A program made the translations under genes and the position numbers. A model generated the notes under the pieces. That model saw only the letters and a list, made by a program, of their open reading frames with translations, was not told the DNA's origin and did not search any database. From IMG/VR virus record IMGVR_UViG_3300024262_004725: a stretch of DNA of 64,000 nt; one strand, 5' to 3'. Of this stretch, positions 26,820 to 59,167 are shown piece after piece (position 1 is the stretch's first letter; each line of letters begins with the position of its first letter). Source of the stretch: an uncultured virus (IMG/VR IMGVR_UViG_3300024262_004725) (taxonomy: Duplodnaviria; Heunggongvirae; Uroviricota; Caudoviricetes).

Positions 26820-26866
26820 TAGGGTTGGGGAGGTTTTACTTATGAAGCTTTTCCAACCCTATTTTT
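26820..26866 (+). terminator. Rho-independent terminator after the capsid gene
   Basis: TAGGGTTGG...CCAACCCTA followed by TTTTT. Confidence 0.75.
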
Positions 26867-34500: not shown

Positions 34501-35922
34501 CGTCAAAATATAACAGATGATTTAATTAGAAAAGCAGATGATGTATTAGCAAGACGACCTGCACGACCTTCAAAAGCAAGTAATATTGTTAATGCTCGCG
34601 GTATTTCTAAAATTAATGAAATGTTTGATGGTAGTTTAGCTCGTAAAGTAGATGATACTTTAGATGAAGCTGTAGGTAGTGTAACTAGTGTAACTCCTGC
34701 AAGAAGTGTATTACCTCCAGTAGGTGTATTAGCTCCAGAAAGAATTTTTGCTCCAGAAAGAAAATTACCTCCAGTAAGAACAATACCTAGGCCTAAAATT
34801 AAACCTGTTATTTTTCCAGAACCTTTTCCTATAAAATTACCTCCAGCAAAACCTGATCCTGAACCTTTCCTAATACCTATACCTGGGCCAGTTGAGCCAA
34901 GAATTAAAATTAAGCCTGGAGTTTTAGATAGATTAAAAACTAAGCATCCTCCTTTTCCTAAATTAATTTCTCAACCTATAACAAGTCCAATTAATCCTAG
35001 TCCTATTGGGGGAGATGTAACACCTCCAGATACTAAAGGTGCAACTACAGGTTTTCCTACAACTATTGTAAAAACTGATTTTGGAACTGGAACAATAACT
35101 ACAACAGGTAATGGAACTTCAGGACAAACAACTGGAGGTGGAGGAAGTACAGGAGATTCTGGAAGTTCAGGAAGTACTGGAACAGATACAGGAGTTGATA
35201 CAGATACAGGAATAGAAATAGATCCTCAACCAGGACCTGTTGTTATACCTCCTCCAGAAACTATACCTCCACCTGAAGTTGTTCCACCACCTATTGAAGA
35301 AGTTATTCCTCCACCTGAAACAATTCCACCTCCTGAAACAGTACCTCCACCAGTAGAAGAAGGAGATCCTCCACCACAAGAAGATCCACCACCAGTTGAA
35401 GAAATAGATAAAATAATTGAAGAAGATCCTCCTCCACCTCCTCAGGAAGATCCACCACCAGATGAAGGTATATTACCTGCTACAGGTGTATTACCTGAAA
35501 TTATACCTGAGATAATTCCAGAAACAGCAAAGAATAAAAATAAATCTTTACTTATTGATTTAGATGATGATGATAGTAATCATTCTAATCGTAGAAGAAG
35601 AATTACTAATTTACAAGCTGTAAAATTATTCCGTAATGTTACTGGAACTAAAGCTCAATGGACATTAGTAGAAAGAGTACGTCAAGGACCTCGTAGTGGA
35701 TTTAAGTTTATTGATAGTTGGGGATCTTTTAATAAAACTCAATTAATTAGTTCTGGTAATATAAATTCAAAAGCTAAAAATATTTTAAATAGCATTTTCT
35801 CAAAACAAGGAGATCATCCATCTAATGGTGAAGATTTAATCTTAGCATTAATTGCTACTGGTCAAATTCAACCTAATGAAATTGACATGGTTCTTCCTTG
35901 GCCAGTGAAAGTAAGTATATGA
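31531..35922 (+). CDS. Large (1463 aa) coiled-coil and Pro-rich protein, probably virion-associated
   Basis: E/K/R/A-rich N-terminal helix, Gly/Ala-rich middle, and PPPE/EDPPP repeats near the C-terminus. Confidence 0.75.
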   Translation: MTTEASLRKEEQRRHRAAELAAKDARDAKKHADEARVAAEAIAKKTKEDAARKAREEEAKAQARRDRIAADNRRELKERKAQKAAAIAATNARRIREKNNRIKAAKEERERQEREKQANSTSADTNQKQNRENETLKQIIHGGAGQPDETVKELLERTTTPPKERTAKEIRDDALASAAKAKAERTAKAEIERKERFERDQKRREELGIIAGVPLLDSDIKEEVNRQIKAEKELDTAKEGSLSGLVDKGIDEDITSSLKAETNIELREQEITLKDAVADAVAQGFEIGENVTAETIREVLKEHAQSKAFGNLGEGELETLIHAEAERQGKELTQSKAFNRNTTGQGETSPEQEALEDQIQGLAKAKRDFEQNLGQSKALVGEGEISAFDNVLFEGETAPQVTASSAISAGGFIPSKAGDNSSVDTLVSTSAQEIDRPVLNAAGEQVSTEKGLMVPTSTGGVIFIPEGQYTKSTKGKERFFVKLPESQQKAFKDDQRKVIQQGNLATAPGKIIGAISAAGETTVGGALFVGSTIPGTQENISALKNFRENFDKARAEGGSVAGALRKAEQETQLPRGVKFGLEAVLDPTVLLSGGTIALVKTGAAGGIKAGVSKGVRVTAKSIASDAIPERQIGEVFQDLGSAALRRTSSGLSGLKTTATTRVGTTAKSISDKAAIITGRQPGSRKLIAREIEPGITQLQPASIREIVLEKIGTSSSLIGNKGAAGTFKTSRIIKASVTKPTIAIGKGIADTLPAQAISKTVKVGIKGARSTPKLIRQAKHGLTEKTIRRNAILEAKALGIDAGSDLHASVVSELVSSALEAAGRGVKAKAITTSRKLKLGTKSKGSSVVRKGIDPVTGLRKITSPITSPAKKLLALTKSTAKKTLDVEARVKNLDDSIKNSESKLAATRKQLREFKEKGVTGPRAERFEATAVKRIDSLETDIAKFAQRRSDELISLDELSFSRSLLDDKGDDFIKEGFLDTSTFKSVTPRQNITDDLIRKADDVLARRPARPSKASNIVNARGISKINEMFDGSLARKVDDTLDEAVGSVTSVTPARSVLPPVGVLAPERIFAPERKLPPVRTIPRPKIKPVIFPEPFPIKLPPAKPDPEPFLIPIPGPVEPRIKIKPGVLDRLKTKHPPFPKLISQPITSPINPSPIGGDVTPPDTKGATTGFPTTIVKTDFGTGTITTTGNGTSGQTTGGGGSTGDSGSSGSTGTDTGVDTDTGIEIDPQPGPVVIPPPETIPPPEVVPPPIEEVIPPPETIPPPETVPPPVEEGDPPPQEDPPPVEEIDKIIEEDPPPPPQEDPPPDEGILPATGVLPEIIPEIIPETAKNKNKSLLIDLDDDDSNHSNRRRRITNLQAVKLFRNVTGTKAQWTLVERVRQGPRSGFKFIDSWGSFNKTQLISSGNINSKAKNILNSIFSKQGDHPSNGEDLILALIATGQIQPNEIDMVLPWPVKVSI

Positions 35923-36950
35923 AAAAAAGATTAACATTAATACTATTCATTATAGTATTTGCAATAATAACTTCTCCAGGAATGTTTCAACAACCCAAAG
36001 CGCATGCTGCAATAGCTTCAGTTCCAAGTAGTATGCTAGTAATTGGTACAGAAACATATGCTTTTAGACATATTCTAGAAACTGATGATGCACTATTTAT
36101 GGCTCCTTATTATATAAATAGTGATGATTGGGTAGGATATGATGGTATAGATATAATTGCTCAATTAGAAAATCATAGTGGAACAATAATAAAGCAAAAA
36201 ACATTAGAACATCTTGATGGTGGAATTATTGGATTTTATATTAATAATTCTGAATTTGCTGCAAATTTTACTTGGCCAGGAAGTGAAAATGCAAGAATAA
36301 TTCTTAGAGCTAATCCAGCAGTTTTTTTAGCTGATCCTTCAATAGATAATACAGGAGATCAAGGTTTAGTTGATGCAACAAAAGAAGGTACAGGATCTAA
36401 TGATGAATGGATAGGCACTGACAATCATTCAGATACTGTAGATGATATGAGATCTAGATTACCTGGAATGTTAAATGCATTAGGTAACGAAGATAGTATT
36501 GATTATTTAGAAGGAGATAAAATAAATCTTGCAGGTGGAGGCTTAATTGTAGAAGCTTTTACATGGATTGTAACTATTGCACCTGAAGCATTTATTCTTG
36601 GTAGTTTAACATTAAATCCTGACTTTAGTGCAACAGGAACAATTGCTTTACAACTTGAATTAGATAGTTTAGATAATACTGCTATAGATTCAGTTACTGG
36701 ACTAGCTACCGGTTTAGGATTTAATCCTTCTATATTTGGTTTAATTGTTATTATTTTAATTAGTGCTCCTGTTATTCTAATGTTAAGAAATATTACAGAG
36801 GATAATGCATTTGCTTTCGCTTCAATAAGCGGTTTACTTGTTTGGTGGACGTCATTAGGTTTACTTTCTGTAGCATTAATAATGACAATATCACTAATAC
36901 TATTTGCAATTCTCGGTATATGGTTATGGAATAGAATACCTACAGGTTAA
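35898..36950 (+). CDS. Secreted, membrane-anchored protein (signal peptide plus C-terminal TM helices)
   Basis: MKKRLTLILFIIVFAII...AHA signal peptide (likely start at the second Met), acidic ectodomain, about 3 C-terminal TM segments. Confidence 0.75.
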   Translation: MASESKYMKKRLTLILFIIVFAIITSPGMFQQPKAHAAIASVPSSMLVIGTETYAFRHILETDDALFMAPYYINSDDWVGYDGIDIIAQLENHSGTIIKQKTLEHLDGGIIGFYINNSEFAANFTWPGSENARIILRANPAVFLADPSIDNTGDQGLVDATKEGTGSNDEWIGTDNHSDTVDDMRSRLPGMLNALGNEDSIDYLEGDKINLAGGGLIVEAFTWIVTIAPEAFILGSLTLNPDFSATGTIALQLELDSLDNTAIDSVTGLATGLGFNPSIFGLIVIILISAPVILMLRNITEDNAFAFASISGLLVWWTSLGLLSVALIMTISLILFAILGIWLWNRIPTG

Positions 36951-36961
36951 AGGAATTTATT

Positions 36962-37207
36962 ATGCCAGAAATTTTTACAACTAAAAAATTAATAGGAATA
37001 GTAGAAAGTGATGAAAACTTTTCAGATTTTATTACTCGTTTATCTAAAATGTCAACAAAAGAATTAGGTAAGCTCGTAGGAGCTACTATGATGTTTGACT
37101 TACAATTAGGTATGCAAATACAAACACCAGTACAAAAAGAATTTGTTAGAAAAAATTTAATGTTAATGAAAGAAGCTAAAAATATTTTAGAAGAACGAAG
37201 GAGTTAA
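36962..37207 (+). CDS. Small helical protein, paralog of 37210-37458
   Basis: Shares RLSKMSTKELGKL with the next gene. Confidence 0.7.
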   Translation: MPEIFTTKKLIGIVESDENFSDFITRLSKMSTKELGKLVGATMMFDLQLGMQIQTPVQKEFVRKNLMLMKEAKNILEERRS

Positions 37208-37209
37208 TT

Positions 37210-37458
37210 ATGCCCGAAAATTTTAGTCAAGCTAAGATTTTTGACATCTTAGAAGATGAAAATAAATATGCAGATTTTGTTGATAGACTTTCAAAAATGT
37301 CAACAAAAGAATTAGGCAAATTACATCAAGAATTAAATAAATTCATTTTTGCTATTATTCAAGCATATCAATCACCTAAAATTATAGCTATGGATAAAAG
37401 ATTAAAAGAATTATTAGAAGAAGTTCGTAATTTATCAATAGAAAGAAATTCTAACTAA
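37210..37458 (+). CDS. Small helical protein, paralog of 36962-37207
   Basis: Shares RLSKMSTKELGKL with the previous gene. Confidence 0.7.
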   Translation: MPENFSQAKIFDILEDENKYADFVDRLSKMSTKELGKLHQELNKFIFAIIQAYQSPKIIAMDKRLKELLEEVRNLSIERNSN

Positions 37459-37970
37459 AAATGGCATTTAGCCCTCGTATGGTTTCTAGATTAGATAATG
37501 ATGAGCTATTAGATTTTCTTGAACTTTGGGTAAAAGAAAATAATAAAGCTAGAAATTCTAATCCTAATAGACTTTCACCTGTTTTGATGGTGGATATTGG
37601 TGAAGGTTTAAAAAAGGAAATTGCGAAAAGAATAAAACGGGGGTCATTACGTAGGGTTGACATTTCTAATAGATTAAAGTAAACTATCAGCGGAGCAGTT
37701 ATACTATTTTTGCAAATAGTTAAAGAGTAAAAATTAATGCAAAATCAAGGATCTAATTTTTTAATAACAATGATGCTAAATAAAGAAGCACCTGCTGGGA
37801 TCTCTCAAGAATCAATTGATCAATTAGCACATATATATACCACATCACCAATTGAAGAACTCCAAGCAGAAGAAACAAAATTAAACAATGAAAATCCTAA
37901 TAGTTTATCTGCAATATTATTAGGCCGTGCAATTAGAATTCGAAAAAATGATAGTCAGAGAGAATTTTAA

Positions 37971-40391
37971 ATGACGATTAGTACAAAACTTTGGGCAATA
38001 ACATTAATAGTTATAGCTTTAACATTAGGTTTATACTCTAGTGTTTTTGCAGACCCTGGAGACTATGATGTAGAAGGTCGTACTATCATTCTAGATGGCG
38101 ATGATGATACTTCTATTGGAGCTACTACAGATGATATAATTACATTTGATGTTAGCGGAACTACAATAGTTACTTTAAGTACAACAACGCTAACTGTAGG
38201 TGTTAATACTTTTCAATTAAATCCATCTACTAATCCAAGTATATTAGGTGCAGATGCAGATGGAGTATTAACTATTTCATCTAATTCTAGTACAACTGGT
38301 GGAAATATTAGATTATTTGGAAATACACATTCTACACAAGCCTATGATTTTGAATATAGAACAAATACTACAGTAAAATTTGATTTTGATGATAGCTCTA
38401 ATATCTTTTCATATGCCCCAGGAATAGCTTTAATTGTAGGATCTTCAAATCAAGATGAACCAGTTTCAGGAATAACTCCTAAGTTTCAATTTTTAGGCAC
38501 AGATAATAATACTAGTTGGGCAACAATGGGACGTTGGTCAGCAGATCCTAGAGGTCCATCTTTAGTATTTATAAAAGGTAGAGATCCTAATATTAGTGGT
38601 ATTGATAGTGTAGCAGATGGAGATATATTAGGTATTCAACGTTGGTATGCAGAAGATGGAGCAAATTTTCCAACTCCTGCAGCTACTTTTTTTGCAGTTG
38701 TAGACGATTCTACACCTTCTGATGGCTCAATAGGAACTTCTTTTATTTTTAATGTAGATAATGGTGCTGGAGGGGGTTTAAGTACAATATTAAAATTAAA
38801 ACCTAAAGGTACATTAGAAATAACAAATAATGATACGGATGGAGATGCATTAGCATTAGCTCTACAAAATGAACAATCAGTAGGATCTGATAATGATAAT
38901 TTAGAACTTCGTTTTGAAATGCAAGATAATGATGGAGGTGTAATTGATTTTGTAGGTTCTCTTGAATATTTATGGAGATCAGCTGGTGCAGGTTCTGAAG
39001 ATTCAACAGGTAGAGTATATTACAGAAGATCAGGTGCGCAAGAACTTGCATTAGATTTTGGAACAATTGATAGTTCAGGAAATCGTGCTTTTAAAGTTAA
39101 TCCATCATCTCTAGATAATGATTTTATTGTTAATACTTCTGGTGGTGTAGCATTTGATATTACAGGAAATACTGGAATTGCTAATTTTAATGCTAATGCA
39201 GTAAATAATATAGGAAGTGTAAATACTGATATTGATAGTGATGATTTTGATTTAGATCAGAATCTTTATCAAACTATTCAACATGAAATTATTCAGCCTA
39301 TTGGGGCTGAAATGTATACAGAATCTAATGCTGCAAATGCCAGTTCTGAAACAAATTCAACAGGTAGCTGGACTACAAATGTTGACGCACTCTTATCTTC
39401 AGATAATACTATATTCTATGATGGTTCTTATTCAATTAAAATGCAGGCTACAGGAAATAACGGACGTACTAACTGGGGTTTTTCTGTAACAAGTGGTTAT
39501 GAATATCATATTTCTTTTTGGCTGTATGTTACAATTAATAATGCACGTCTAGGTATTTATGAATCGCCTACTTCAGTTGGTAGTCTATTTAATTTTGGAG
39601 ATGAAAGCGGTACAGTAGTAGCAGAATCAGTTTGGAAATATTATTCGGGAGTAGTTACTGCACATGAAACAGGAACAAGGTATGTAAGATTTGAAGAATA
39701 TAGTCCTAGCGACAATACTATTCTATACATTGATGATTTCAATATTGAACAAGTAAGTACTGTAGAAATTGGGGATCTTGAAGTTGATGGTAATATAAGA
39801 CTCCAACAAGGAGATCTTCGTCTAGATGAAGATGGATCAAATATCTGGTTTGGAGAATATGGTAACGCTGCTATTTATTATACTGATGATTTAGATGCTT
39901 TAGTAATTGATGTAACAACAGGTGATTTAGATGTAGAATCTGATAACGTCACTATGAATGCTAATCAAGTAGCTTTCAATGTTGATACTCATTTAAATAT
40001 GGATGATTCAGATATTGTTAATAATTTCTATTCTTATGATGAAGTATCTACATTAGCTGGATCAGAATCAGTATCTCAATATTTCAGTACTACAGATGGT
40101 ATGAATTTTTATACTGTTTGGGTTTTAACTGTAGACCAAGGTAATGTAAATGGCGCTAGTTTTAAACATGGATGGGTAGGTGGATTTAATAATGGAGGTA
40201 GTTTAACATCTGCATTAAGTGGAACTTATGCTAGTGGAGGAACTGAAGCTGCTGATATTGGAATAACCCTTTTTGCAGTTGATAGTGATACTTTAAGAGT
40301 TACCATAACAAATAATGGATCGGATCCATGGGCTACTACTGCTGTTTATTATGAAGCCCGTGCAACTCGTACAGCTCCACTTCTCGATTAA
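37971..40391 (+). CDS. Secreted beta-rich fibre/adhesin-like protein with carbohydrate-binding-like domain
   Basis: Signal peptide ending VFA; D/T/S/G-rich; segment YDGSYSIKM...YHISFW...LYIDDF. Confidence 0.65.
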   Translation: MTISTKLWAITLIVIALTLGLYSSVFADPGDYDVEGRTIILDGDDDTSIGATTDDIITFDVSGTTIVTLSTTTLTVGVNTFQLNPSTNPSILGADADGVLTISSNSSTTGGNIRLFGNTHSTQAYDFEYRTNTTVKFDFDDSSNIFSYAPGIALIVGSSNQDEPVSGITPKFQFLGTDNNTSWATMGRWSADPRGPSLVFIKGRDPNISGIDSVADGDILGIQRWYAEDGANFPTPAATFFAVVDDSTPSDGSIGTSFIFNVDNGAGGGLSTILKLKPKGTLEITNNDTDGDALALALQNEQSVGSDNDNLELRFEMQDNDGGVIDFVGSLEYLWRSAGAGSEDSTGRVYYRRSGAQELALDFGTIDSSGNRAFKVNPSSLDNDFIVNTSGGVAFDITGNTGIANFNANAVNNIGSVNTDIDSDDFDLDQNLYQTIQHEIIQPIGAEMYTESNAANASSETNSTGSWTTNVDALLSSDNTIFYDGSYSIKMQATGNNGRTNWGFSVTSGYEYHISFWLYVTINNARLGIYESPTSVGSLFNFGDESGTVVAESVWKYYSGVVTAHETGTRYVRFEEYSPSDNTILYIDDFNIEQVSTVEIGDLEVDGNIRLQQGDLRLDEDGSNIWFGEYGNAAIYYTDDLDALVIDVTTGDLDVESDNVTMNANQVAFNVDTHLNMDDSDIVNNFYSYDEVSTLAGSESVSQYFSTTDGMNFYTVWVLTVDQGNVNGASFKHGWVGGFNNGGSLTSALSGTYASGGTEAADIGITLFAVDSDTLRVTITNNGSDPWATTAVYYEARATRTAPLLD

Positions 40392-40427
40392 TTCATAATA
40401 TAGTATTTTAGCTTGGAGGCTAACTAA

Positions 40428-41078
40428 ATGACAAAAGATTTTCACATTCAACTTAATTTTAGATATTTTTTAATATTAGGCATTATTGGAGTATTATTAA
40501 TTGCAGTTACTTCACTTGCATTAGCTGGTTCAAGTCCAGCAACACAAGATGAAATAATTACAGTAAATATTAATCCAGTTCCTCAATCTGATATTAATTC
40601 AGAAATAGTTGCAGAAATTTTACCTGCACCAGTAACACTTAAAATTGACACTGCTAGCATTCAATCCACAAGAGAAGCAGCATCATTAGGTCAATTAGCT
40701 TTTAGAGAAATATTAACTAATCTTGAAATTTTTCAAGAAGGTCAGATAGAAGGGATTGTATTAAATAGCGAACAAATTTTAAATATTAGAAATAATGTAT
40801 TTAAAAATATTAATATTGTAGAGCAACGTCTTATTGATTTAAAAACTAATTTAGATGTTTCTCCAGAACAATTAAGTACTGCAGCAATAAATTTTCCAGT
40901 AGATGATATTCTTTATAAAAATGAAATAGAAGCTACTGCAATTGTTATAGAAGCTACTGAAACAGCTATAGCAGCTACTCAACAAGCAGAATTAGACGCA
41001 ACAGCTACAGCATTAGCATTAATACCAACAGAAATACACCCAGCTACTAGTACACAAAAATCTACGTTAAGTCCATAA
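40428..41078 (+). CDS. Membrane-anchored/secreted hypothetical protein
   Basis: N-terminal TM/signal segment and AT-repeat-like tail (ATETAIAAT, ATATALA). Confidence 0.6.
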   Translation: MTKDFHIQLNFRYFLILGIIGVLLIAVTSLALAGSSPATQDEIITVNINPVPQSDINSEIVAEILPAPVTLKIDTASIQSTREAASLGQLAFREILTNLEIFQEGQIEGIVLNSEQILNIRNNVFKNINIVEQRLIDLKTNLDVSPEQLSTAAINFPVDDILYKNEIEATAIVIEATETAIAATQQAELDATATALALIPTEIHPATSTQKSTLSP

Positions 41079-41099
41079 TAAAAAAAATAGGTATATAAA

Positions 41100-41393
41100 T
41101 TGAAAAATATTTTATCAATAATCATTCTTAGTATTATAACTATTATAACTTTTACATTATTAACTCTTAAAGGTGGATTCCCATTAGTAAGAGCAGACGT
41201 AATAGAAGGATCAGCTACTGGAGAAGATGGAGTAGCCCAGGAAGTTAGTATAATTGCATTTAATGGATTTCATGTATTAAATATAGTATACAGTTCCTTA
41301 ATTGCAATTTTCATTGGATTAGTTTCCAATTTTGGCCTTAAAGAAATTTATGCAGCAATTCTTAAAGATGTTGCAAATAGGAGAAAAGATTAA
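41100..41393 (+). CDS. Small two-TM protein (possible minor virion protein)
   Basis: Two hydrophobic segments and a basic C-terminus. Confidence 0.5.
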   Translation: MKNILSIIILSIITIITFTLLTLKGGFPLVRADVIEGSATGEDGVAQEVSIIAFNGFHVLNIVYSSLIAIFIGLVSNFGLKEIYAAILKDVANRRKD

Positions 41394-41660
41394 ATGCCTA
41401 CAGTACAAGTAGCAATGTCAAATGAAGCTTTAGATAATGTTCAGGAATCTGCTAATCGTTTAAATGGATCAGAGATTCAATCATTTCCTCTTGCTGAGGA
41501 TAAAGGAATTGAAGTAGATTTTAGTTTTGAAGATACAGTAATAGCTTCTAGATTTAGAATGTCAGTTTCAAGAATTCCAGGCGTTATTAATGCTGATTTT
41601 GTTCGACCTGAAAATATTGGCGGCTTCAACGCTTAATTAAATAACTCTTTAGGAGTTAAT

Positions 41661-44612
41661 GTGACTACTTTTCAAAAAACATTAGTACCTATTTTTGTAG
41701 TAATAGGTATTGTACTTAGTATACTTGCAGTTAAAGCCAATGAATTTGGAGTAGTAGACCCAGATATTACACCGGACTATTTTTGGTCTTTTAACTATGA
41801 ATATTTTAATCCTACAGGAGATGGTATCCCTGAATTAATAGCAGGGGATAATAATCTTACAGCATTAGGTCCAAATATTCAAGTAATTCCAGAAACAGAG
41901 TCACAAACTTATGGGACCATATTAACTCATGATGGAGGTTCATTTATAAATGAATTTCAAACTGAAGGGTCTTTTAGTACAGAATACTCACCTGGGTTTT
42001 CATTTATAATACCTTTATACTTTAATACATTACCTACTAGTGATTATACTATTATAGGTCATGGAGAAACAGTAGCACCTAAATTAGGATGGAGATTAAG
42101 ATATTCTGCAGCATCTTCTACAGTATATTTTGAAAGTTCACCAAATGGCTCAATAGCAGTAGCCACTGATGTAGTTAGTTCTGCAACCTTTACTACAGGT
42201 ACATGGTATTCTATTGGATTTGCTTCAGATGGATCAACAGGAGTAACTTTAACTGTAAATAATTTAATAGACACAGGTACAACTCAAGCAGGAGGTCCTT
42301 ATACAAATCCAACTTCACCAGTACCTTTATTTGTATTTGGAGATATCCCATCAACTTTTGTAGATGTTTTAATTTCTTATATTGCATTTTATAATTCAAC
42401 ATTAACATCTGGACAGTTAACTGCAGCAGTAAATGATATTGCTCCTGATAATACTTTAGATTACTCTTTTGAAATCGATGTAGAAGTTGTAAATTCAAGT
42501 ACTACTGCTAAAACTAATTTCCAATTACCTATTGAAATTAGTACTCAAAATTTAATTAATTATAGTTATATGGAAGCGGATTTAAATGATGTAGTTATTA
42601 TTGATCTTTCTGGAGAAGACTATGATAACTTAATTACATTAGAAGGAGTTTCAACAACATCCCCTGTAAATACTTCAGAATATGCATTTGCATTAATTCC
42701 TAATTTGCAGGGTAGTTCAACATTATCTTTAGATATTAGATCAGGATTATCATCTAGTACACTACCTTACTCTAATGCTCGAGGATTTAGTGTAACCAAT
42801 GGTAATGATTGGATTGCAGGAGAAGATAATACAACTATCCAATTTGAACAAACTAATTTAGGTTTAAGTGTAAATGCAGAAGTAATAGAATTCCCTGATC
42901 AAATATTCCCCACAAATAAATCAGGATTAATAGCTGCATATACTTTTGAAGGGTCAACTTCAACAGAAGCATTAGAAGATAAAGCTATAAATGGTTTAGA
43001 TATTACTACTTGTAATGCTACAGTGGGTACTATTGATAATGCAGCACCTCCAACAGGTTACTCACAACAAAATCTAAAAGCTTTTATAGGCACTAATACT
43101 TGTCATACTTCAGATATAACTTATGGAATTTGGCCAGATATTTCTACTAGTCCATTGGCTACAGCAGGTACTGAAGTTTCAATAGTTATGGAATTAGGCG
43201 ACAATATAATTTCCAATTTACCTACAGGAGATTATACTGTTCTTTACTTAGCTTTAGATAATGCTTTTTCAGGATATAGTCGCTGGGCAGTTGGTTTTAC
43301 AGGCACGTCAGGAACTTCAAGACCTTGGTTTGAATATACTGATAATTCATATGTAATAAATAGATATGAAGCATCTAATTGTTTTATGAGTGGTGTAAAT
43401 ACTGAATCTTTTTATTTTTATAGAAATCAAGCTACAAATGAAACAGAAATATGGTGGGGATCAACTCTTTGTACAGCTAGTTGGGTAAGTGGTAATGGAA
43501 CTGGGCCTGCTGTAGAAGATACATTTTCAGATCATGCTTTATGGTTTTTTGGAGATGATCTAGGTGGGCAAATTGCAACATCGTCATTAACTGTAGATGA
43601 AATTTCAATATGGAATAGAGAACTAACTACAGATGAACATGCTCAGGTTATGCATAATCCAGTACCAGGAGATACATATTCTTGGTTTCTAAGAAAAAGT
43701 ACAAAAAGTTTAGAAAGAAATAATTTTCTTTTTGGAGTTAATAGTGCAGAAGAATTAGTAATTGGGATTAATGATAGCCCTTACATAACAGCTGCAATTG
43801 AACAACCTAATCAAAAAAATACATATAGTGCAATATTATTAGGGAATAATATACAATTATGGGAAGGTAGTGGGCAATTAATTAGCACAACTACTTCTCC
43901 TTCTTGGTTTCTTACATCTGATGATTTAATTTATTTAGGTGGGGGAGATACTTTAACATTTTCAGATAGTACAATAGGTAATATTTATGGAGGGGATTCC
44001 GCAGTTAATATTTTCCACTCTGCTGAAATAAGAGATGATCAAGGATTATCTACAGAAGCAACTGCTTTTGAATTAGATTTAGCACCTGGAAATTGGACTC
44101 AAACACAAGAAGGGTCTGCAGCTAATAATTGGACATGGACAGGTACTTCATCTGAATTATCTATTGAAAATCAAGCATTAACTTACCAAATTCAAACAGA
44201 TCAAACAGATATAACAGTAATTACATCTGGAATTATTCCATTAGATGCATTTGAAATTATACCTACACCAGATACTTCAGTAAGTATTATTGGAGATATT
44301 GCTGCAATACCAGTAACAGTAACTCCAAATCCAAATGTACCATTATCATTATTTATTACAGATGCTGCAACAAGTATAGGAGTTGAACCTGCTGCAATAT
44401 GGTTTATTGTAGTATATGCAATTGCTATTGTATTTGCAACAGCATTTATGAAAACGATTCAAGGAGCTTTATTCGCAATCCTCTTAATGGACTTAATAGT
44501 TCTTGCAGGTAGTATGTCAGGATTATATGCATACTGGATGACAGGATTAACGATTGTAATGACAATGGGCATCTATGCAACAGGTGTACTTAGAAAAGGC
44601 GGATTAATATGA
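41661..44612 (+). CDS. Large adhesin-like protein with LamG/ConA-like domains and C-terminal TM anchor
   Basis: Signal peptide; TWYSIGF, IAFYNSTLT and VDEISIWNRELT (LamG-type motifs); about 3 C-terminal TM helices. Confidence 0.75.
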   Translation: MTTFQKTLVPIFVVIGIVLSILAVKANEFGVVDPDITPDYFWSFNYEYFNPTGDGIPELIAGDNNLTALGPNIQVIPETESQTYGTILTHDGGSFINEFQTEGSFSTEYSPGFSFIIPLYFNTLPTSDYTIIGHGETVAPKLGWRLRYSAASSTVYFESSPNGSIAVATDVVSSATFTTGTWYSIGFASDGSTGVTLTVNNLIDTGTTQAGGPYTNPTSPVPLFVFGDIPSTFVDVLISYIAFYNSTLTSGQLTAAVNDIAPDNTLDYSFEIDVEVVNSSTTAKTNFQLPIEISTQNLINYSYMEADLNDVVIIDLSGEDYDNLITLEGVSTTSPVNTSEYAFALIPNLQGSSTLSLDIRSGLSSSTLPYSNARGFSVTNGNDWIAGEDNTTIQFEQTNLGLSVNAEVIEFPDQIFPTNKSGLIAAYTFEGSTSTEALEDKAINGLDITTCNATVGTIDNAAPPTGYSQQNLKAFIGTNTCHTSDITYGIWPDISTSPLATAGTEVSIVMELGDNIISNLPTGDYTVLYLALDNAFSGYSRWAVGFTGTSGTSRPWFEYTDNSYVINRYEASNCFMSGVNTESFYFYRNQATNETEIWWGSTLCTASWVSGNGTGPAVEDTFSDHALWFFGDDLGGQIATSSLTVDEISIWNRELTTDEHAQVMHNPVPGDTYSWFLRKSTKSLERNNFLFGVNSAEELVIGINDSPYITAAIEQPNQKNTYSAILLGNNIQLWEGSGQLISTTTSPSWFLTSDDLIYLGGGDTLTFSDSTIGNIYGGDSAVNIFHSAEIRDDQGLSTEATAFELDLAPGNWTQTQEGSAANNWTWTGTSSELSIENQALTYQIQTDQTDITVITSGIIPLDAFEIIPTPDTSVSIIGDIAAIPVTVTPNPNVPLSLFITDAATSIGVEPAAIWFIVVYAIAIVFATAFMKTIQGALFAILLMDLIVLAGSMSGLYAYWMTGLTIVMTMGIYATGVLRKGGLI

Positions 44613-44674
44613 TCAGAATAATTAATGAAGGAGAATCAAGAGGTCAGTTATTATTTACTATAGAAGAATTTTAA

Positions 44675-45076
44675 ATGCCAATTAGATTTTATCTTTGGTT
44701 ATCTTTTCTTTGGTTAGGAATGATAATTCTTTTCAATCTTGTGAATTTCAACTTTGCAACTAGCGGTACAATTACAGCTACTGCAAATGCTGATATTGAT
44801 ACATTATTTTTAATGAATCAATTCAGTACATTTACAATTCCTATTATTGATATTGGATTACCAATACCTCACCCTAGTTTATTTTCTACATTAGCTAAAA
44901 TGTTAATTTGGGAATACCCTTTCTTTGCTGGCCATTGGAATTTAGTTAGAATTTTCTTCTTACTTCCAATTACTTTCGCAGCTACTTTCGTATTCATTCA
45001 AGCTTTAGCACCAGTTATTACTTCAATTGTTTCCGCAGTTGGAGACTTTATAGGAAGGTTAATAAACATTTTCTAA
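44675..45076 (+). CDS. Membrane protein
   Basis: Hydrophobic N- and C-terminal segments. Confidence 0.65.
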   Translation: MPIRFYLWLSFLWLGMIILFNLVNFNFATSGTITATANADIDTLFLMNQFSTFTIPIIDIGLPIPHPSLFSTLAKMLIWEYPFFAGHWNLVRIFFLLPITFAATFVFIQALAPVITSIVSAVGDFIGRLINIF

Positions 45077-45359
45077 TGCCATCACTTGCAGGTAAAATAT
45101 TAAGTAATGATGTAAATGGATTAACTACAGTAGTAGCACAAGTAGATAGAGAAGTTGGGAGAGTTCGTCACGGAGAAAATACAGGATTAAAAATTGGACG
45201 CCCACGTTCAGATGAATTATTATTCGTAATTCAAGATTTAGATTCCATAACTCTTTATAAAAAACTAGAAGCTTTAGAAGATTATTATGGACAAGATAAT
45301 GTAATAGTACTTGAATCTACTTAATTTTATTATATTATAAATAGCAAAAGAGGTATAAA

Positions 45360-45866
45360 TTGGACCCAGTCGCACTTGTTTATGTAATGTTTTCTATGCT
45401 ACTTCTCGGAGGTGGTGTAGTAGTTACTGCTCTATATTATAAAAGAAATTTCTTTAAAAAGAAAATTAAATGTTATTTTTATACAAGAGAAAATGCTGTA
45501 GAAGAACAATTACTTAAACCAAATTCAGATAACCAATTTGAATGGAATGGTGGTAACTACATGTTTGTTCGAGATGCTGTTAAATTAGGTAAAACAGTAA
45601 TTGGAGAAGGTGTACCAACTCTAACTTTCATTGAAGATAATCCGTATCCTATTCTTTTTGTACAAAATTTTGCTGCTGATATTGGAGAAATTACAGCTAG
45701 ACAAATTGCAGCTGATTTTGATGACAAAATGGCAAGAGAATTAGGTGCAGTAACTACAATTGAAGAAGATTCTGAAGATTTAAAACAATTAAAGACTTAT
45801 ATTGTTACAATTGGATTACTTCTTGCTATGATTATGTTAATTGGCTTCTGGGTTATTGGTTCCTAA
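45360..45866 (+). CDS. Membrane protein with TM helices at both ends
   Basis: GAGG RBS, TTG start, two TM segments; close upstream of the ATPase. Confidence 0.65.
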   Translation: MDPVALVYVMFSMLLLGGGVVVTALYYKRNFFKKKIKCYFYTRENAVEEQLLKPNSDNQFEWNGGNYMFVRDAVKLGKTVIGEGVPTLTFIEDNPYPILFVQNFAADIGEITARQIAADFDDKMARELGAVTTIEEDSEDLKQLKTYIVTIGLLLAMIMLIGFWVIGS

Positions 45867-46360
45867 TGGCTAAAAAAGAATTATCATTTGGAAAAGTTAC
45901 TCCACTAAGTTCAAACGAACAAATTAGTCAAAGAGAATCTCCTACTGAATTTGCATCTGATGAAGATAATATTTTTGGAGGTACTGGATCAATACCAGAA
46001 GATAATCGAGATGATGAACAAGGAGATAGCTTTGGTACTTTTCAAGATGGTTCATTAAATTCAGATCAAGGAATCTTATCTACTTTATTAGATTCTGGAA
46101 GTGGTAATGATGGCCAAAGTGAATGGATAAAACAACTTTTAACTGATGAAAATTTACTGTTAAAAACAGATGTTCCAGAAAGAGCAATTCCAGCAATTGC
46201 AAAAGCAATTGTACTAGCTAATAAATATAGATCAAAAAGATTATGGGATTATATTATTTATTATTTAAAGTTAAGAATTTCACGTGAACGTGAAGGTAGA
46301 AAAGAATTAGTTGCAATGGCTTTAAGAACGAAAGGCCATGACGAATTAGACGACTTTTAA
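45866..46360 (+). CDS. Hypothetical protein adjacent to the ATPase
   Basis: Acidic N-terminus, then LKLRISREREGRKELV; abuts the ATPase start. Confidence 0.6.
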   Translation: MAKKELSFGKVTPLSSNEQISQRESPTEFASDEDNIFGGTGSIPEDNRDDEQGDSFGTFQDGSLNSDQGILSTLLDSGSGNDGQSEWIKQLLTDENLLLKTDVPERAIPAIAKAIVLANKYRSKRLWDYIIYYLKLRISREREGRKELVAMALRTKGHDELDDF

Positions 46361-47044
46361 ATGATAATATCAATTGAAGGTAAAATGGGTTCAGGAAAAA
46401 CCCTTACCACTACAATGCTAGGTTTTGATGCATTTAAGCAAAATCGAAAAGTACTTGCAAATTATAAATTAAATTTTCCTTATGAAGTATTTGGACCTGA
46501 AGATTTTTATAGAATTAATGACCAAGATTTAGAACTTAATAATTGTATGGTACTTGCTGATGAAGGTTATTTAATGATGGACTCTAGAAATAGTATGTCT
46601 ATTATGAATAGATTAGTAAACTACTGGTCAGTACAAACAAGAAAAAGAAATGTAGATTTAGTAATTGCTACACATGAATTTACTAGATTAGATAAAAGGA
46701 TTAGATCTGCAGTTGATTTAAGAATTGGTTGTAGATATGAATTAAGAGGTTCAGAAATTGCATATAAGCAAAATAAAGCTGGACATCTTATTATGGATCC
46801 AGAAACAGGGAACCCTAAAAAAGCTAGAGATAAATATGGAAATCCAATATTTATTAAAAAGGCTTTAGATGAAATGGGTAAAGTAGTTACGTTAAGAGGA
46901 GAACCAAAATTAAGATTAATGTTTAGAAATATGATGAAAGGTACTGTTAATCTTCAATATATTAACCCAATTCCTTTCATGAAATATTATGATACAGAAG
47001 AAATTATTTCAATTCCTGAAGGAGTAATGAACAGAGGTTTATAA
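46361..47044 (+). CDS. Zot-like P-loop ATPase (virion assembly/extrusion)
   Basis: Walker A GKMGSGKT, VLANY, Walker B VLADEG, DSR, QTRK and LDKRIR. Confidence 0.82.
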   Translation: MIISIEGKMGSGKTLTTTMLGFDAFKQNRKVLANYKLNFPYEVFGPEDFYRINDQDLELNNCMVLADEGYLMMDSRNSMSIMNRLVNYWSVQTRKRNVDLVIATHEFTRLDKRIRSAVDLRIGCRYELRGSEIAYKQNKAGHLIMDPETGNPKKARDKYGNPIFIKKALDEMGKVVTLRGEPKLRLMFRNMMKGTVNLQYINPIPFMKYYDTEEIISIPEGVMNRGL

Positions 47045-48286: not shown

Positions 48287-48752
48287 ACAAAGAAGAGCAC
48301 AATCATATGAAGCATGGATAAGAAGAGGATTTTTACCACAAGAGGCATGGTATTTAGCTAATCATGGATTTCGTGTAACAAGTAAAAATCTTAGAACTCA
48401 TACTTTTGTTAGAAGACTAACATCAGTAAGAAAAAAGCTAATAACAAAATGGGTAGATTTTGGTTTTTCAAGTAGACAAATATTTAATTTTCTTTATGAC
48501 TTAATTGAAAATCCTTTGGTGGGAGACAATTTAGAAGATCAATTAAGATCTGTAGGTAGTGATCCAGATGAACCTATAAATGAAGCATTAAAACCTTATA
48601 GCGCACTCTTAAGATCTAAAAAAGATGTAGAAGATCATTTTGAATTTTCACTTGGTTTAACAGTTCAAACATTTAGTAAAGATATGTACGATTTATCTAT
48701 TGAGGACGCAAAGTATTGGGAAGAACTAGCAACGAAATTATTAAGGAAATAG
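48213..48752 (+). CDS. Hypothetical protein upstream of PolB (terminal-protein candidate)
   Basis: Arg-rich N-terminus, helical, overlaps the PolB start. Function is inferred from position only. Confidence 0.45.
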   Translation: MASRSTSVRYPQRLQRLPRGQTQAEQRRAQSYEAWIRRGFLPQEAWYLANHGFRVTSKNLRTHTFVRRLTSVRKKLITKWVDFGFSSRQIFNFLYDLIENPLVGDNLEDQLRSVGSDPDEPINEALKPYSALLRSKKDVEDHFEFSLGLTVQTFSKDMYDLSIEDAKYWEELATKLLRK

Positions 48753-50521
48753 TTCCAGATACTGATTTATTTGTAGAAGATTTCTACGAATCCCCACCTT
48801 TTAATAATATTAATTTTGATAGAACAAATAAAAGATATAAGTTTAAGAAAAGAACAGCAGAAAATGTTGAAGGATTAATAGTAAAAACAGATAGAGATGG
48901 AAATTTAATATACATTGAAACTAAAATGGGTAAAATTAGTAATTTAGATATATTCTTAGTATATATTTTAGATAGACCTGATACCCTTTTTGTTACTTTC
49001 TACCCTTATGAACTCGATATTATATTGAAAAAATTTGGAGAACGAGTTTGTTCAAGATTAATTTATAGAGGACAAGCTACAGATTATGATAGAGGTGTTA
49101 CCATGTGGTATGCACCTAATAAAAATATTACTATACAAAGAATGCGAAGAGTTGTAAGAATTCAATCAATAAAAGATTGGTTTAAAAACTTAACTCTTGA
49201 AGATGCTTTAACAGATAACGATATAAAAGATCAAGGGGTTACAGGTTTAACAATATTAGCAAATGATCTTAATAAAGAATGTATGCTAGTATTAGGATCT
49301 AAAAATGGAGATTTATCTGCACCAACTACATTAACAAATTCAATATTGGAAAATGCAAATTACAGACCTGATTTTAATAAAATTCCAATGGAAGCAATTG
49401 AATTAGCATATACAAGTTTTCATGCCCCTTGGATTGAAATGTTTAGAATGGGTCATTTTGAAGAAATTCATGATTATGATTTAAATTCAGCATATCCAAC
49501 AGAAGTTGCAGATTTAATTTCAATAGATACTGGAGAATGGGTTGAATCAGATACCTTTCAAGCAGGTGCTTATTATGGATTTTGCTATGCAGTAATTCAA
49601 ATATATCCTACATATATTTCACCTATTTTAATGAGATCTGAAGGTAAACTATTTTCAACTGAAGGTACTTGGGTAGGAACAATAACAAAAGATGAAATTG
49701 ATTTTATTCAAAGACATGAATTAGGTAATGTTGTTGTATTAAATGGTTGGTGGTATTTTCCATCTGCTTATGATAGACCATTCAAGAAAGAAGTTACTAG
49801 ATTATTAAAGCTTAGAAGTTGGGCAAAACTTAAAGGATATAATCTTTTAGAGTATGCAATTAAAACTTCAACAGCAAGATTAGCAGGTAAATTTTTACAG
49901 AAGTCTATTAATTTAGATGATTTACAAACTTATAATGCAGGAAGACATTTTAATCCAATCTATGCAACTATAGTAATGACTAGAGTTAAATTATCATTAG
50001 CTGAACAACTATTCAGAGATAAAGAAAAAATACTAGCTATTGTTATTGATGGAGCTTTATTAGATGGAAAATCAACAGTATCAACATCTAAAGATCCTGG
50101 AGATTTAAAATTAAGTGAAAAAGGTGATGGAGTAATATTTTCGCCTTTTACAACTTTCTTAACAGAAAATAGAAATCCATTTTTAGTGAAAGATATTATA
50201 CAAAAAGATCCCATGAAAACTTGGTATCCATTACCTTCATTTGGGCCAGACAGATTAAGGTTATGTCAAGCTATATTAGATAATAAATTTGAATGGACAG
50301 GTCGAATAGTTGAATCAGAAGCTATAGTGGAGGTAGGAAATACAAACGATAGATTCTGGGAAGATAAACCTCAATACGGTTTGGACTTATTATTAAAAAA
50401 ATATTCTAGTTTTCCACATATGATTGAACATTTTAGTTATACATATGGTGTAGCAGATCTTACAAAACAAATCAGAGAAGATATGTTAAAAGAAATTAAT
50501 CCACAGGAAGTAACAATATGA
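48716..50521 (+). CDS. polB: Divergent family B DNA polymerase, protein-primed type
   Basis: Motif A YDLNSAYP; motif B-like IKTSTARLAGKF; FNPIYATIVMTRVK; motif C-like IVIDG; insert containing GTWVG after motif A. Confidence 0.72.
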   Translation: MGRTSNEIIKEIVPDTDLFVEDFYESPPFNNINFDRTNKRYKFKKRTAENVEGLIVKTDRDGNLIYIETKMGKISNLDIFLVYILDRPDTLFVTFYPYELDIILKKFGERVCSRLIYRGQATDYDRGVTMWYAPNKNITIQRMRRVVRIQSIKDWFKNLTLEDALTDNDIKDQGVTGLTILANDLNKECMLVLGSKNGDLSAPTTLTNSILENANYRPDFNKIPMEAIELAYTSFHAPWIEMFRMGHFEEIHDYDLNSAYPTEVADLISIDTGEWVESDTFQAGAYYGFCYAVIQIYPTYISPILMRSEGKLFSTEGTWVGTITKDEIDFIQRHELGNVVVLNGWWYFPSAYDRPFKKEVTRLLKLRSWAKLKGYNLLEYAIKTSTARLAGKFLQKSINLDDLQTYNAGRHFNPIYATIVMTRVKLSLAEQLFRDKEKILAIVIDGALLDGKSTVSTSKDPGDLKLSEKGDGVIFSPFTTFLTENRNPFLVKDIIQKDPMKTWYPLPSFGPDRLRLCQAILDNKFEWTGRIVESEAIVEVGNTNDRFWEDKPQYGLDLLLKKYSSFPHMIEHFSYTYGVADLTKQIREDMLKEINPQEVTI

Positions 50522-55055: not shown

Positions 55056-56858
55056 ATGACAAAAATTCTAAATTATAAATATTCTCCATACATTTTAGCA
55101 ATAGTGATCTTCTTCTGGTACTTACCTAATATAACTCCTGGTTATACTTGGGTAAGTGCTGGAGTAGATCATTTTGATTTTATATTTGCAGCAAGATTTC
55201 ATTTAGTACCACATTCTACTGGATTTCCTGCATATATGATACCTGCTAATTTAGTATTAATGGCATCACCTAATACTCATATTGCATGGACAATGGCAAT
55301 TACATTATCTATGATTCCTATGGTAATTACAGGTGTACTAGTACATTTATCAGTTAAAAAACTAATTGAAAATTGGGGCTCTTCATTAAACAAAGAATTT
55401 GAAACTACTCCAATTGACAAAACATTTCAACTTATTGATTACAAAATATGGACACCTTATGTAGCACAGCTAATTACTTACGGCGCAGTATTATTAATCG
55501 CACAAACATTCATAGTAGAAGTATATCTTTTTTCTATTATGATTGCGATGACAGCAATCACTTTTCATATATACGGAAAACACAATTGGGCATCAGTTTT
55601 TATAGGACTTGCATTTGCTTCGCACGGACTAACTTGGACAATGATGGGATTATTATTACTCATCAATTGGAAGACGTATATATCTAAATGGTGGATTCTT
55701 TCAATATTTGCAATAACACCTTATGCATATTTACCAATTGCAATGTCAATGACAGAATTTGGCGAAGAAAATACATTAAGAAATAATCAAATATCTGAAT
55801 ATTATAGATTTTTTAAATTTGGTTCTTCAAGTTTTTGGTGGGGAACATTACCAATATGGAAAGTACCTGAACGCATATGGGATTCACTCATCTTAATTTC
55901 GGTAACCCTAGGACTAGGAAGTCTCTCTTTAATTCTATTTATAAAACACGATATGAAAAAATATTGGTGGCTAATTCTGATAATAGCCCCAACACTATAT
56001 TACTGGTTCGGAACTGCAGTGAACATCGTTCATGTACACTTTGCATTAGCAGTACCTGTAATAATAATTCTAGCAAGCCTAGGATTAAAATACAGCACAA
56101 TTCATCCAAAGTATTACGCATTAGTAGCCCTAGCTATAATTTTAACAATCCCATTTTATTGGGATCTAGGGAGAACTTTAGATAAAAATCAAGCATCACA
56201 ATCCTATTATGATTTCTTTGATACATTAGAAAATGATGATCATGTCATTATTAATGTAGCAATAACTACAGTAGAAAAAGAAAATGAAACAGTAACAGCA
56301 TTAACAGATGGAGTAGCTATTTGGTGGGGTACTTTATTATATAACAGATTAAATAATAGAAAAATTACACCAATTTCACCTAATAAATATTTAGATGTAA
56401 ATAATAGTTTTGATCCAGCAAGAAACGAAGGAAGAAAACAAACATCATTAAATTATCAAAATAGTTTAATTCAGTATGGATTAAATCCAGTTGATGCTTT
56501 ATTATTAAAAGAACAAGAAGGAACTGGATGGTATGTAGAACTCAATGGAAAAGAGATTAATATACCAGATAACATCTACGATCCTTGTGATCCATCTTGT
56601 ATAGATCCAGAAAGAAATATTTTTCAAATTCAACAATGGTGGTTAATAGACAGAATTTTCCTTGCTAATCCTAATCAAACAATTCATTTAACAGAAAATA
56701 TAGGAAGAGAAGAAAAAGATATTATAGATAGGATATATACACGTGACTTATTACCTACAAACATTGCAATTGCATTTGAACAAATTTACAATGAAGCAGG
56801 GATTAGCATTACTACTAGGGGTAATACTAGGAACAACTTTTATAACATCGACAGTTAG
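55056..56858 (+). CDS. DUF2723/TMEM260-like GT-C glycosyltransferase
   Basis: GVDHFDF...VPHSTGFPAY (compare the HPPGYP motif), IVEVY, multiple TM helices. Confidence 0.72.
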   Translation: MTKILNYKYSPYILAIVIFFWYLPNITPGYTWVSAGVDHFDFIFAARFHLVPHSTGFPAYMIPANLVLMASPNTHIAWTMAITLSMIPMVITGVLVHLSVKKLIENWGSSLNKEFETTPIDKTFQLIDYKIWTPYVAQLITYGAVLLIAQTFIVEVYLFSIMIAMTAITFHIYGKHNWASVFIGLAFASHGLTWTMMGLLLLINWKTYISKWWILSIFAITPYAYLPIAMSMTEFGEENTLRNNQISEYYRFFKFGSSSFWWGTLPIWKVPERIWDSLILISVTLGLGSLSLILFIKHDMKKYWWLILIIAPTLYYWFGTAVNIVHVHFALAVPVIIILASLGLKYSTIHPKYYALVALAIILTIPFYWDLGRTLDKNQASQSYYDFFDTLENDDHVIINVAITTVEKENETVTALTDGVAIWWGTLLYNRLNNRKITPISPNKYLDVNNSFDPARNEGRKQTSLNYQNSLIQYGLNPVDALLLKEQEGTGWYVELNGKEINIPDNIYDPCDPSCIDPERNIFQIQQWWLIDRIFLANPNQTIHLTENIGREEKDIIDRIYTRDLLPTNIAIAFEQIYNEAGISITTRGNTRNNFYNIDS

Positions 56859-58525: not shown

Positions 58526-58540
58526 CTAAAGGAATTTAAT

Positions 58541-58813
58541 ATGCCAAGTACTAAACACGCTATATTAAAAGCAGTATCAGAATATCCTTTTAGAGAAGGA
58601 ATAGATGTAAATAGTTTATATAGTGATGCAAAAGAATTAAAACCAGAATTAGAAATTAGAGATTTTGATAGAACATTAATTCATCTAGTTAAAAATAATT
58701 TTTTAGATGCAGATAACATAAAAATGGACACCGATAATGTTGATATAGGAATACCTGCAAGAATTAAAAGAGGATTCTTTATCCTTACTATGAAAGGTGA
58801 TTTAGAAATATAA
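58541..58813 (+). CDS. Winged-helix-like small protein
   Basis: ILKAV...FDRTLIHLVKNNFL...FILTMKG. Confidence 0.5.
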   Translation: MPSTKHAILKAVSEYPFREGIDVNSLYSDAKELKPELEIRDFDRTLIHLVKNNFLDADNIKMDTDNVDIGIPARIKRGFFILTMKGDLEI

Positions 58814-59122: not shown

Positions 59123-59167
59123 GGGGTCAAAAAAGGCTGGACAAAACACAACAATTAATGATATAAT
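59123..59167 (+). promoter_or_regulatory. Sigma70-type promoter with GGGGTCA element
   Basis: GGGGTCA, TGGACA (59138-59143), 18-nt spacer, extended -10 TG-A-TATAAT (TATAAT at 59162-59167). Confidence 0.75.

Follow-up and report, generated by a model that had tools for sequence, protein, structure and literature searches.

A probable spindle-virus-type virion module in a large DNA virus with a likely bacterial host

The 64,000-nucleotide stretch analysed here (the window) belongs to a 73,046 bp contig of an uncultured virus (IMG/VR record IMGVR_UViG_3300024262_004725), whose remaining 9 kb lies outside all scans. It carries a set of genes running from a small hydrophobic capsid gene to an assembly ATPase (Table 1). 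The initial annotation had described part of this region, 35898..47044, as a non-tailed, membrane-extrusion morphogenesis module, and the open reading frames (ORFs) it named were found where it placed them, all on the + strand. A Kyte-Doolittle hydropathy scan and inspection by eye served to judge signal peptides and membrane helices. The three proteins credited with signal peptides (35898, 37971 and 41661) each have a basic-hydrophobic-small-residue leader, and the C-terminal anchors assigned to two of the three are present in 35898 and 41661 and absent from 37971. Their description as large suits 37971 and 41661 and does not suit 35898, which has just 343-350 amino acids (aa) and probably starts at ATG 35919, as in the collection's call of 343 aa. 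Among the smaller ORFs, where the initial annotation had noted several membrane proteins, 40428, 41100, 44675 and 45360 are hydrophobic and 36962, 37210, 37461, 37737, 41394, 45076 and 45866 are not. By the same hydropathy scan, membrane ORFs are nonetheless enriched here (7 of 15 in 35.8-47.1 kb vs 5 of 49 in 1-26.5 kb).

Table 1. Features of the window discussed in the text.
Feature	Position	Strand	Remarks
Six 21-nt near-palindromic repeats	682-864		near contig start
tRNA-Gln(UUG)	9044..9117	+	U1:A72 and G73; host clue
tRNA-Leu(UAA)	15123-15210		
UDG-fused family A DNA polymerase (PolA)	22861..25551	+	directly before capsid region
Major capsid protein, 68 aa	26550..26756	+	SSV/His1 VP1-like hydrophobic two-helix hairpin, without pro-peptide
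Terminator-like hairpin	26820..26861	+	19-pair stem and T tail; consensus match only; directly 3' of capsid gene
63-nt tandem repeat	30015-30329		inside 299-aa ORF 29932
Giant soluble protein, 1463 aa	31531..35922	+	basic N-part, Pro-rich C-part
Exported protein, 343 aa	35919..36950	+	Ig-like sandwich and three C-terminal hydrophobic helices; family of 14 rows
Exported Ser/Thr-rich protein, 806 aa	37971..40391	+	without anchor
Three small ORFs (216, 97, 80 aa)	40428..41636	+	first two hydrophobic; not conserved
Exported protein, 983 aa	41661..44612	+	C-terminal hydrophobic helices; C-terminus a family of 7 rows
Conserved hydrophobic protein, 133 aa	44675..45076	+	family of 9 rows
Conserved protein, 168 aa	45360..45866	+	N- and C-terminal membrane helices; family of 13 rows
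Conserved soluble pre-ATPase protein, 164 aa	45866..46360	+	common to archaeal spindle viruses; family of 14 rows
pI/Zot-family assembly ATPase	46361..47044	+	Walker A GKMGSGKT, Walker B DE, conserved RK..D.R.R
Divergent protein-primed-type family B polymerase (PolB)	48716..50521	+	motif A present, motif C degenerate
Glycosylation cluster	55056..62885	+	TMEM260-like membrane transferase homologue, O-antigen-ligase-like protein, GtrA flippase, epimerase, DegT aminotransferase

Sequence comparisons suggest that the assembly module extends upstream of the interval first annotated, to the capsid gene. The encoded 68-aa protein matches phrog_11172 (E 4.5e-5), and a profile of its family (31 relatives) run against the PDB returns SSV19 VP1 (7xdi_A, E 4e-9) as the sole significant row. 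The predicted structure is a two-helix hairpin (pLDDT 92), for which the top Foldseek row is again 7xdi_A (TM 0.76, E 0.015); the top VIA row (Z 8.3) is tied with unrelated hairpins. A 16-row capsid profile gives 31 bits to SSV1 VP1 and 29 bits to His1 gp21, above shuffle maxima of 9.0 and 7.5, and the coats of the inoviruses M13 and OH3 receive 2.6 and 0.9 bits, inside the shuffle range. The strong ribosome site (GGAGG) upstream of the gene, the hairpin behind it and its distinct codon use (GC at third codon positions of 0.49 vs 0.06-0.21 in 12 other genes) are as expected for high expression.

At the other end of the module, the Zot-like ATPase recognised in the initial annotation scores 26.3 bits on Pfam Zot (cut-off 20.3), matches the PHROGs pI/Zot families and has no membrane segment by hydropathy. 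A search of 50,697 phage records gave eight matches, in which WyrdV1 and Muninn rank ahead of inoviruses; the best annotated match is the wyrdvirus WyrdV1 (E 2e-15 over 81%). A profile of the ATPase family gives 85 bits to WyrdV1, 70 to Muninn, 22-43 to four inovirus-type records and 10 to His1 (E 0.013), and SSV1 B251 was not among the matches listed. In a tree of 37 rows, which left terminase and conjugation ATPases out, the window ATPase lies in a clade (support 97/85) to which 11 of the 12 module-bearing loci belong, and in the family scans terminase and conjugation ATPases gave no match to it. Neither the single sequence, searched against viral contigs, nor the ATPase alignment, searched against the genome collection, found a match, and seven weak matches (E 3e-5 to 4e-4) fall on plasmids of 6-15 kb. 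For the gene directly before the ATPase, a profile built from 12 family rows with the references left out and run over 455 ORFs of eight reference records picks out the gene in the same position in Muninn (E 4e-7) and WyrdV1 (E 2e-5), with nothing significant in the other six records, four of them inovirus-type. In the accessible text of their description, wyrdvirus ATPases are pI-like without a membrane domain, and five conserved genes lie between adhesin and ATPase (10.1101/2021.07.29.453957). A complex prediction for the ATPase with the pre-ATPase domain scored 0.00, the partner fold being uncertain, and speaks neither for binding nor against it.

Between capsid and ATPase, the exported proteins resemble the tip of SSV19 in architecture. 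According to the portion of the SSV19 study available, the tailspike VP4 and the adaptor B210 share a terminal part made of a beta-sandwich and a three-helix bundle; the bundles surround a 131-aa nozzle and provide the seat for the first VP1 subunits (PMC9351363). In the window, two of the exported proteins have hydrophobic helices at their C-terminal ends, and beside the larger one lies a conserved 133-aa protein that is also hydrophobic. The model of the 343-aa protein (pLDDT 75.6) consists of a signal helix, an immunoglobulin-like (Ig-like) sandwich and hydrophobic helices at 270-293, 296-312 and 316-339. Its fold matches are generic and do not mark it as an ordinary tailed-phage tail part; SSV19 tip chains are absent from the top rows, and chains of the N4 tail and the phiKZ baseplate are among the Ig-like rows that tie. 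The family, whose rows come from ORFs of collected loci, counts 17 proteins in another search, and no solved structure was matched by the profile of either this family or the 133-aa family. We regard the 343-aa protein as a candidate tip adaptor, with an architecture like that of B210. The 983-aa protein, a candidate VP4-like tailspike or adhesin, has two C-terminal segments above threshold (912-930 and 937-955) and stands where WyrdV1 has a 973-aa adhesin; its Atlas neighbours include LamG/ConA-lectin at 0.91, a lead only, and a relative in locus L077 passes Laminin_G_2. By size and position the 133-aa protein may be the nozzle, although its profile matches no counterpart in WyrdV1, Muninn or SSV1, and the 168-aa protein is a candidate membrane tether of the assembly site, its comparison with the positional counterparts in wyrdviruses and Muninn not being significant. 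There is no match to VP2 or VP3 of the fuselloviruses and halspiviruses, and the tip proteins are not detectably homologous to theirs. Of the remaining large proteins, 37971 has a single homologue, in L043, and no family, and may be a variable accessory spike or adhesin. For the giant protein 31531, the scans gave no family and the 2,807 ORFs of the collected loci no homologue; it could form an internal core, organise the DNA or act in ejection. Of the 11 metagenome loci that extend 4 kb or more downstream of the capsid gene, 9 have an ORF of 669-1470 aa behind that gene.

Conserved synteny, which the initial annotation had proposed as a check, is seen across many relatives. Locus scans covered six viral loci found by ATPase, six found by capsid (three in common) and 80 retained out of 129 metagenome matches to one capsid pattern; the family also counts 284 protein clusters. 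Iterated profiles over the 2,807 ORFs, with E-values inflated by iteration, gave the families listed in Table 1 and no relatives of 40428, 41100, 41394, 45076 or 31531. The recurring order is capsid, giant protein, 340-aa exported protein, adhesin, three small genes and ATPase, and it is found in many sediment and subsurface contigs, three of which are viral records of 88-110 kb. It is complete within 10.7 kb of L099, present in part in G001, G003, G007, L003, L038, L046, L077 and others, and rearranged in L043, L046 and L029. The core thus comprises the capsid, the giant protein (by position), the 340-aa exported protein, the adhesin, the 133-aa, 168-aa and pre-ATPase proteins and the ATPase; the rest is variable. 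The viral records are G001 (87.8 kb, 96% complete), G003 (109.6 kb), G007 (88.2 kb) and G002 (54 kb), the last of which ends inside the module and has no capsid match. All four share PolA with the window and variously ribonucleotide reductase (RNR), SNF2 helicase, LuxR and a membrane glycosyltransferase, and two further capsid-bearing metagenome contigs measure 99 and 119 kb, of which 10-11 kb were examined. PolA stands just before the capsid gene also in G007, L027/L044 and L048. No RNA run with the contig was listed. In the one DNA run that contains it, possibly its source, the contig consists of two unitigs (1-30,058 at depth 16 and 30,250-73,046 at depth 15), the window starting at the start of a unitig, and the even depth together with the PolA-capsid linkage in relatives argues against a chimera.

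Hallmarks of head-tail viruses are missing. Hidden Markov model scans with Pfam and PHROGs over 87 window ORFs found no terminase, portal, HK97 capsid, tail or endolysin family, in line with the initial annotation, which had recognised no terminase, portal, tail or endolysin. The exceptions are weak: ORF 60137, which is charged, matches a scaffolding-protein PHROG (E 5e-5), and 20879 matches a tape-measure Pfam far below cut-off. PHROG scans likewise found no terminase, portal or HK97 among 145 ORFs of G001 (at least 65 aa) and 123 of G003 (at least 95 aa), ORFs across the borders of 20 kb pieces being missed. A 'tail protein' PHROG match in G003 was rejected, as the protein is a ComEC-like metallo-hydrolase.

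Taken together, we consider it probable that these genes are the virion-building module of a large double-stranded DNA (dsDNA) virus with a spindle-virus-type capsid and, most likely, a bacterial host. The module works like that of wyrdviruses and fuselloviruses. An SSV1-VP1/His1-like two-helix hydrophobic capsid and an assembly ATPase without a membrane anchor are both present; an adhesin with C-terminal helices and small membrane genes before the ATPase are matched by architecture and order, with sequence homology for the pre-ATPase gene only. The proposal of membrane-coupled assembly is supported, with the module being of spindle-virus and not inovirus type. 'Non-tailed' is to be read as lacking a Caudoviricetes tail, with the amendment that the C-terminal helices probably double as the virion tip assembly. 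By analogy with SSV19 and wyrdviruses, the capsid protein would accumulate in the host membrane. Sec would export the 343-aa and 983-aa proteins, which their C-terminal helices would hold and which virus enzymes of the 55-63 kb cluster would glycosylate. Asn-linked sequons (NxS/T) are not enriched (11 vs 12.7 expected in 37971, 13 vs 13.6 in 41661), so N-glycosylation is unsupported and O-linked modification is more likely. Together with the 133-aa protein, the two exported proteins would make up a short tip at which the helical strands of capsid protein nucleate. The ATPase, a soluble protein, would be set at the membrane by its 168-aa and 164-aa neighbours, the likely tether given that the ATPase has no anchor, and would feed the genome into the particle during budding or extrusion. 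A genome of at least 73 kb favours a widened spindle over a thin filament, and with no endolysin, release would require that the host lack a rigid wall; the shape of the virion and its non-lytic release are both argued here from analogy, and one spindle virus family can lyse its host (Bicaudaviridae profile of the ICTV, the international committee for virus taxonomy).

Several observations weigh against this interpretation. The evidence consists of genes, with no particle, proteome or host link. The 16-row capsid profile does not score the capsids of WyrdV1 and Muninn (-3.7 and 1.3 bits), the G001 capsid misses phrog_11172 (E 0.001), and the ATPase tree leaves unsettled whether wyrdviruses or inoviruses are the sister group. 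It is architecture and position that underlie the roles assigned to adaptor, nozzle and tether. One tail-category PHROG matches 125 residues of a G001 protein that is exported (E 2e-9), and the head-tail negative for the window covers 64 of 73 kb. With regard to the host, the genome collection gave a single match (1 of 29 pattern matches), on a contig of 15 kb binned as Bathyarchaeia, and nothing links the virus directly to Dehalococcoidia, the bacterial class we favour below; the window's GC of about 30% compares with 44-45% for the Dehalococcoides element IME1.

A bacterial host is nevertheless well favoured in our assessment. The window encodes two LuxR domains and PolA above cut-off, Sak4 and SSB by PHROGs, and an RNase HI whose best model, PRK00203, is bacterial-type; purine-rich ribosome sites, and group I introns in the capsid genes of relatives, add to this case. 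Group I introns are mainly features of bacteria and phages. The tRNA-Gln also counts here, as bacterial tRNA-Gln has U1-A72 and archaeal tRNA-Gln A1-U72 in the available sections of the respective reports (PMC1635274; PMC2811023). Purine-rich ribosome sites precede 35 of 80 genes vs a 6% background, a signal that is not domain-specific, and a sigma-70 promoter scan of the window was uninformative (84 sites vs 87 in shuffles). An archaeal host such as Bathyarchaeia, which would make this a large new family of archaeal spindle viruses with acquired bacteriophage replication genes, is unlikely. It draws on the Bathyarchaeia-bin match, on the archaeal viruses that are the nearest named relatives of capsid and ATPase, and on the description of the spindle shape as archaea-specific (ICTV profile and, in their accessible parts, 10.1101/2021.07.29.453957 and PMC9351363). 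However, only 1 of 301 genomes of the Bathyarchaeia class has a strong match, three other rows being weak matches in longer ORFs, and the bin contig shows module-type genes only in the 10.8 kb examined, so mis-binning is possible. The LuxR, PolA, Sak4/SSB and tRNA-Gln evidence also speaks against archaea, and TFB, PCNA and MCM families are absent from the 87 window ORFs. Within bacteria, our best guess is a peptidoglycan-less member of the Dehalococcoidia, which we rate as an even call. It is suggested by the IME1 precedent, by the subsurface origin of the sequencing run with the contig, and by the loss of peptidoglycan in this class, as stated in the part of PMC10284905 at hand. No Chloroflexota genome in the collection matched narrow patterns, and RNR gave no host clue in a comparison with plasmids (best 39%).

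Less likely still is a bacterial virus with the same membrane assembly whose particle is, as suggested for IME1, filamentous, rod-like or pleomorphic. In the accessible text, IME1 fractions contained filaments and vesicles, with the shape unresolved (10.64898/2026.09.15.751708), and the rod-shaped APBV1 is built from the same hairpin fold (PMC9351363, as far as available); the ATPase is also of the pI family. Against such a particle, the capsid matches SSV and His1 and not inovirus coats, the tip architecture is SSV-like and the genome measures at least 73 kb. Very improbable is a reading without a virion, in which a mobile element or large linear plasmid would use these genes for secretion or for a pilus-like apparatus. 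In its favour, pilins of VirB2 type are likewise hydrophobic with two helices, named families are lacking for most module proteins and two IMG/VR records are classed as proviruses, but the specific match to VP1, the phage-like nucleotide-metabolism genes, the weakness of the ATPase's plasmid matches and the absence of relaxase, VirB4, coupling protein and partition families from the window scans all oppose it.

Outside the module, the window encodes RNR and ThyX in addition to two DNA polymerases. The divergent PolB matches phrog_11768 (E 6e-7), His1 PolB (E 5e-5) and a G007 homologue (E 2e-58), with no match in Pfam or among phage records. Family A and protein-primed-type family B polymerases occur together in the window, G001, G003 and G007, the latter as PF03175 beside PolA in G001 and G003 and in divergent form in the window and G007. 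The two tRNAs match AT-rich codon use, and the first protein of the glycosylation cluster matches a G001 protein (E 3e-8) that passes PF11028. In G001 the first 96 bases recur in inverted form as 112 bases inside the opposite end, the pattern expected of a linear genome with terminal repeats; no end repeats were found in G002, G003 or G007.

Further observations concern individual genes and loci. The window's own capsid gene is intact. Group I introns (RF00028) are located inside or next to the capsid gene in G003 (L009:1696-1893) and in 13 of 19 loci picked by motif from 80 (L052-L054, L082, L083, L098, L101-L104, L106, L116, L120). These introns occupy two recurring sites, some loci carrying two, and a 249-aa ORF upstream in G003 may be a homing endonuclease. 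Some relatives have two or three tandem capsid paralogues (L108:480-1253, L099:240-686). ATPase paralogues occur in G001 (L015:17155-17718, L017:6728-7354), L019, L023, L060, L072 and L080, and those checked lack Walker A. The compact locus L029 (6.1 kb, GC 29%), with a pre-ATPase gene, an ATPase outside the main clade and two capsid-like genes, may be a small low-GC relative. Queuosine/7-deazaguanine genes (QueC, QueD, QueE, GTP cyclohydrolase) in L014, L022-L024 (G001, G003), L027 and L034 suggest modified DNA, and window ORF 19757, without a family match, may relate to them. Flotillin/SPFH-type membrane scaffold genes in G001 (L013:13071-14597) and G003 (L024:2379-4373) fit membrane-based assembly. 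The 21-nt repeats of the window, of GTGAAA..TCGCACAA type with 23-32 nt spacing, are a possible operator array or origin, and the 63-nt tandem repeat splits the Logan unitigs.

By the features tested, this virus is not a wyrdvirus, IME1, an inovirus or a tailed phage. It shares with wyrdviruses and Muninn of Asgard archaea (MZ666939, OM716000) the anchor-less pI-like ATPase, the homologous pre-ATPase gene, the order of adhesin, small membrane genes and ATPase, and an SSV/His1-class capsid, and with Muninn a protein-primed PolB. Those records, however, measure 13-16 kb (wyrdvirus genomes reach 20 kb in the text available, 10.1101/2021.07.29.453957), and their capsids are not detectably similar to the profile of the window family. 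WyrdV1 has TFB and Zn fingers, whereas the window virus has PolA, LuxR, RNR, tRNAs, an extra giant protein and a second anchored exported protein. The combination of a pI-like ATPase and an SSV-like capsid in bacteria is already known from small integrating elements in a 2026 preprint (10.64898/2026.09.15.751708). As far as its accessible portion tells, IME1 of Dehalococcoidia (21-28 kb) integrates at a tRNA by a tyrosine recombinase, encodes a primase-helicase, and resembles the window virus as a bacterial element with a pI-like ATPase, phrog_11172/SSV1-VP1-like capsid candidates, exported adhesin-like proteins and no tailed-phage hallmarks; the likeness of ATPase and capsid is at family level, taken from IME1's description without alignment to its proteins. 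IME1 differs in its size of about 23 kb and its capsid genes after the ATPase, and the window virus in its two polymerases, RNR, ThyX and glycosylation cluster. No integrase was seen in 64 kb, and the scans of the 87 ORFs matched no tyrosine recombinase or primase-helicase family.

The Fuselloviridae and Halspiviridae (SSV1, SSV19, His1) share VP1 homology and exported proteins with C-terminal hydrophobic helices, and His1 also terminal repeats, PolB and a glycosyltransferase, but they have about 15 kb, archaeal hosts and distant ATPases. Among the Bicaudaviridae, ATV (62.7 kb) is likewise a large-genome spindle virus (ICTV profile), set apart by its ICTV description as circular, with an integrase, no DNA polymerase and a different capsid sequence. 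Inoviruses (Tubulavirales: M13, OH3) share the pI/Zot ATPase family and the logic of extrusion, and differ in having ssDNA genomes of 4-11 kb, a coat unrelated to this capsid, a pI with a membrane anchor and a rolling-circle initiator; their ATPases score lower and they lack a pre-ATPase gene. Our literature search, which left subscription journals mostly uncovered and to which the IME1 supplements (Table S11, IME1-like elements) could add, did not find a large, polymerase-encoding, probably linear family of this type, and the Bathyarchaeia virus paper (PMC10541130) concerns, in its available text, a different spindle provirus. It is about equally plausible, in our view, as not that the window virus represents a widespread family not yet described, 73 to about 110 kb in size, with probably linear, self-replicating dsDNA, building glycosylated spindles at the membrane of wall-less bacteria, for example Dehalococcoidia.

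If our interpretation is correct, an archaeal-virus architecture has been joined to a bacteriophage replication module (PolA with protein-primed PolB, and RNR), in a genome larger than those of the spindle viruses compared here, which would also be a test of the scaling limit of the spindle capsid. Surveys based on head-tail markers would then overlook abundant sediment viruses, and the capsid motif and the ATPase with its pre-ATPase gene supply markers for host linking. Such a virus would break the rule that spindle viruses are archaea-specific. As a common, large and autonomous family, it would make the spindle architecture an established way to infect bacteria, and would indicate that the type of virion is set by the envelope of the host and not by its domain.

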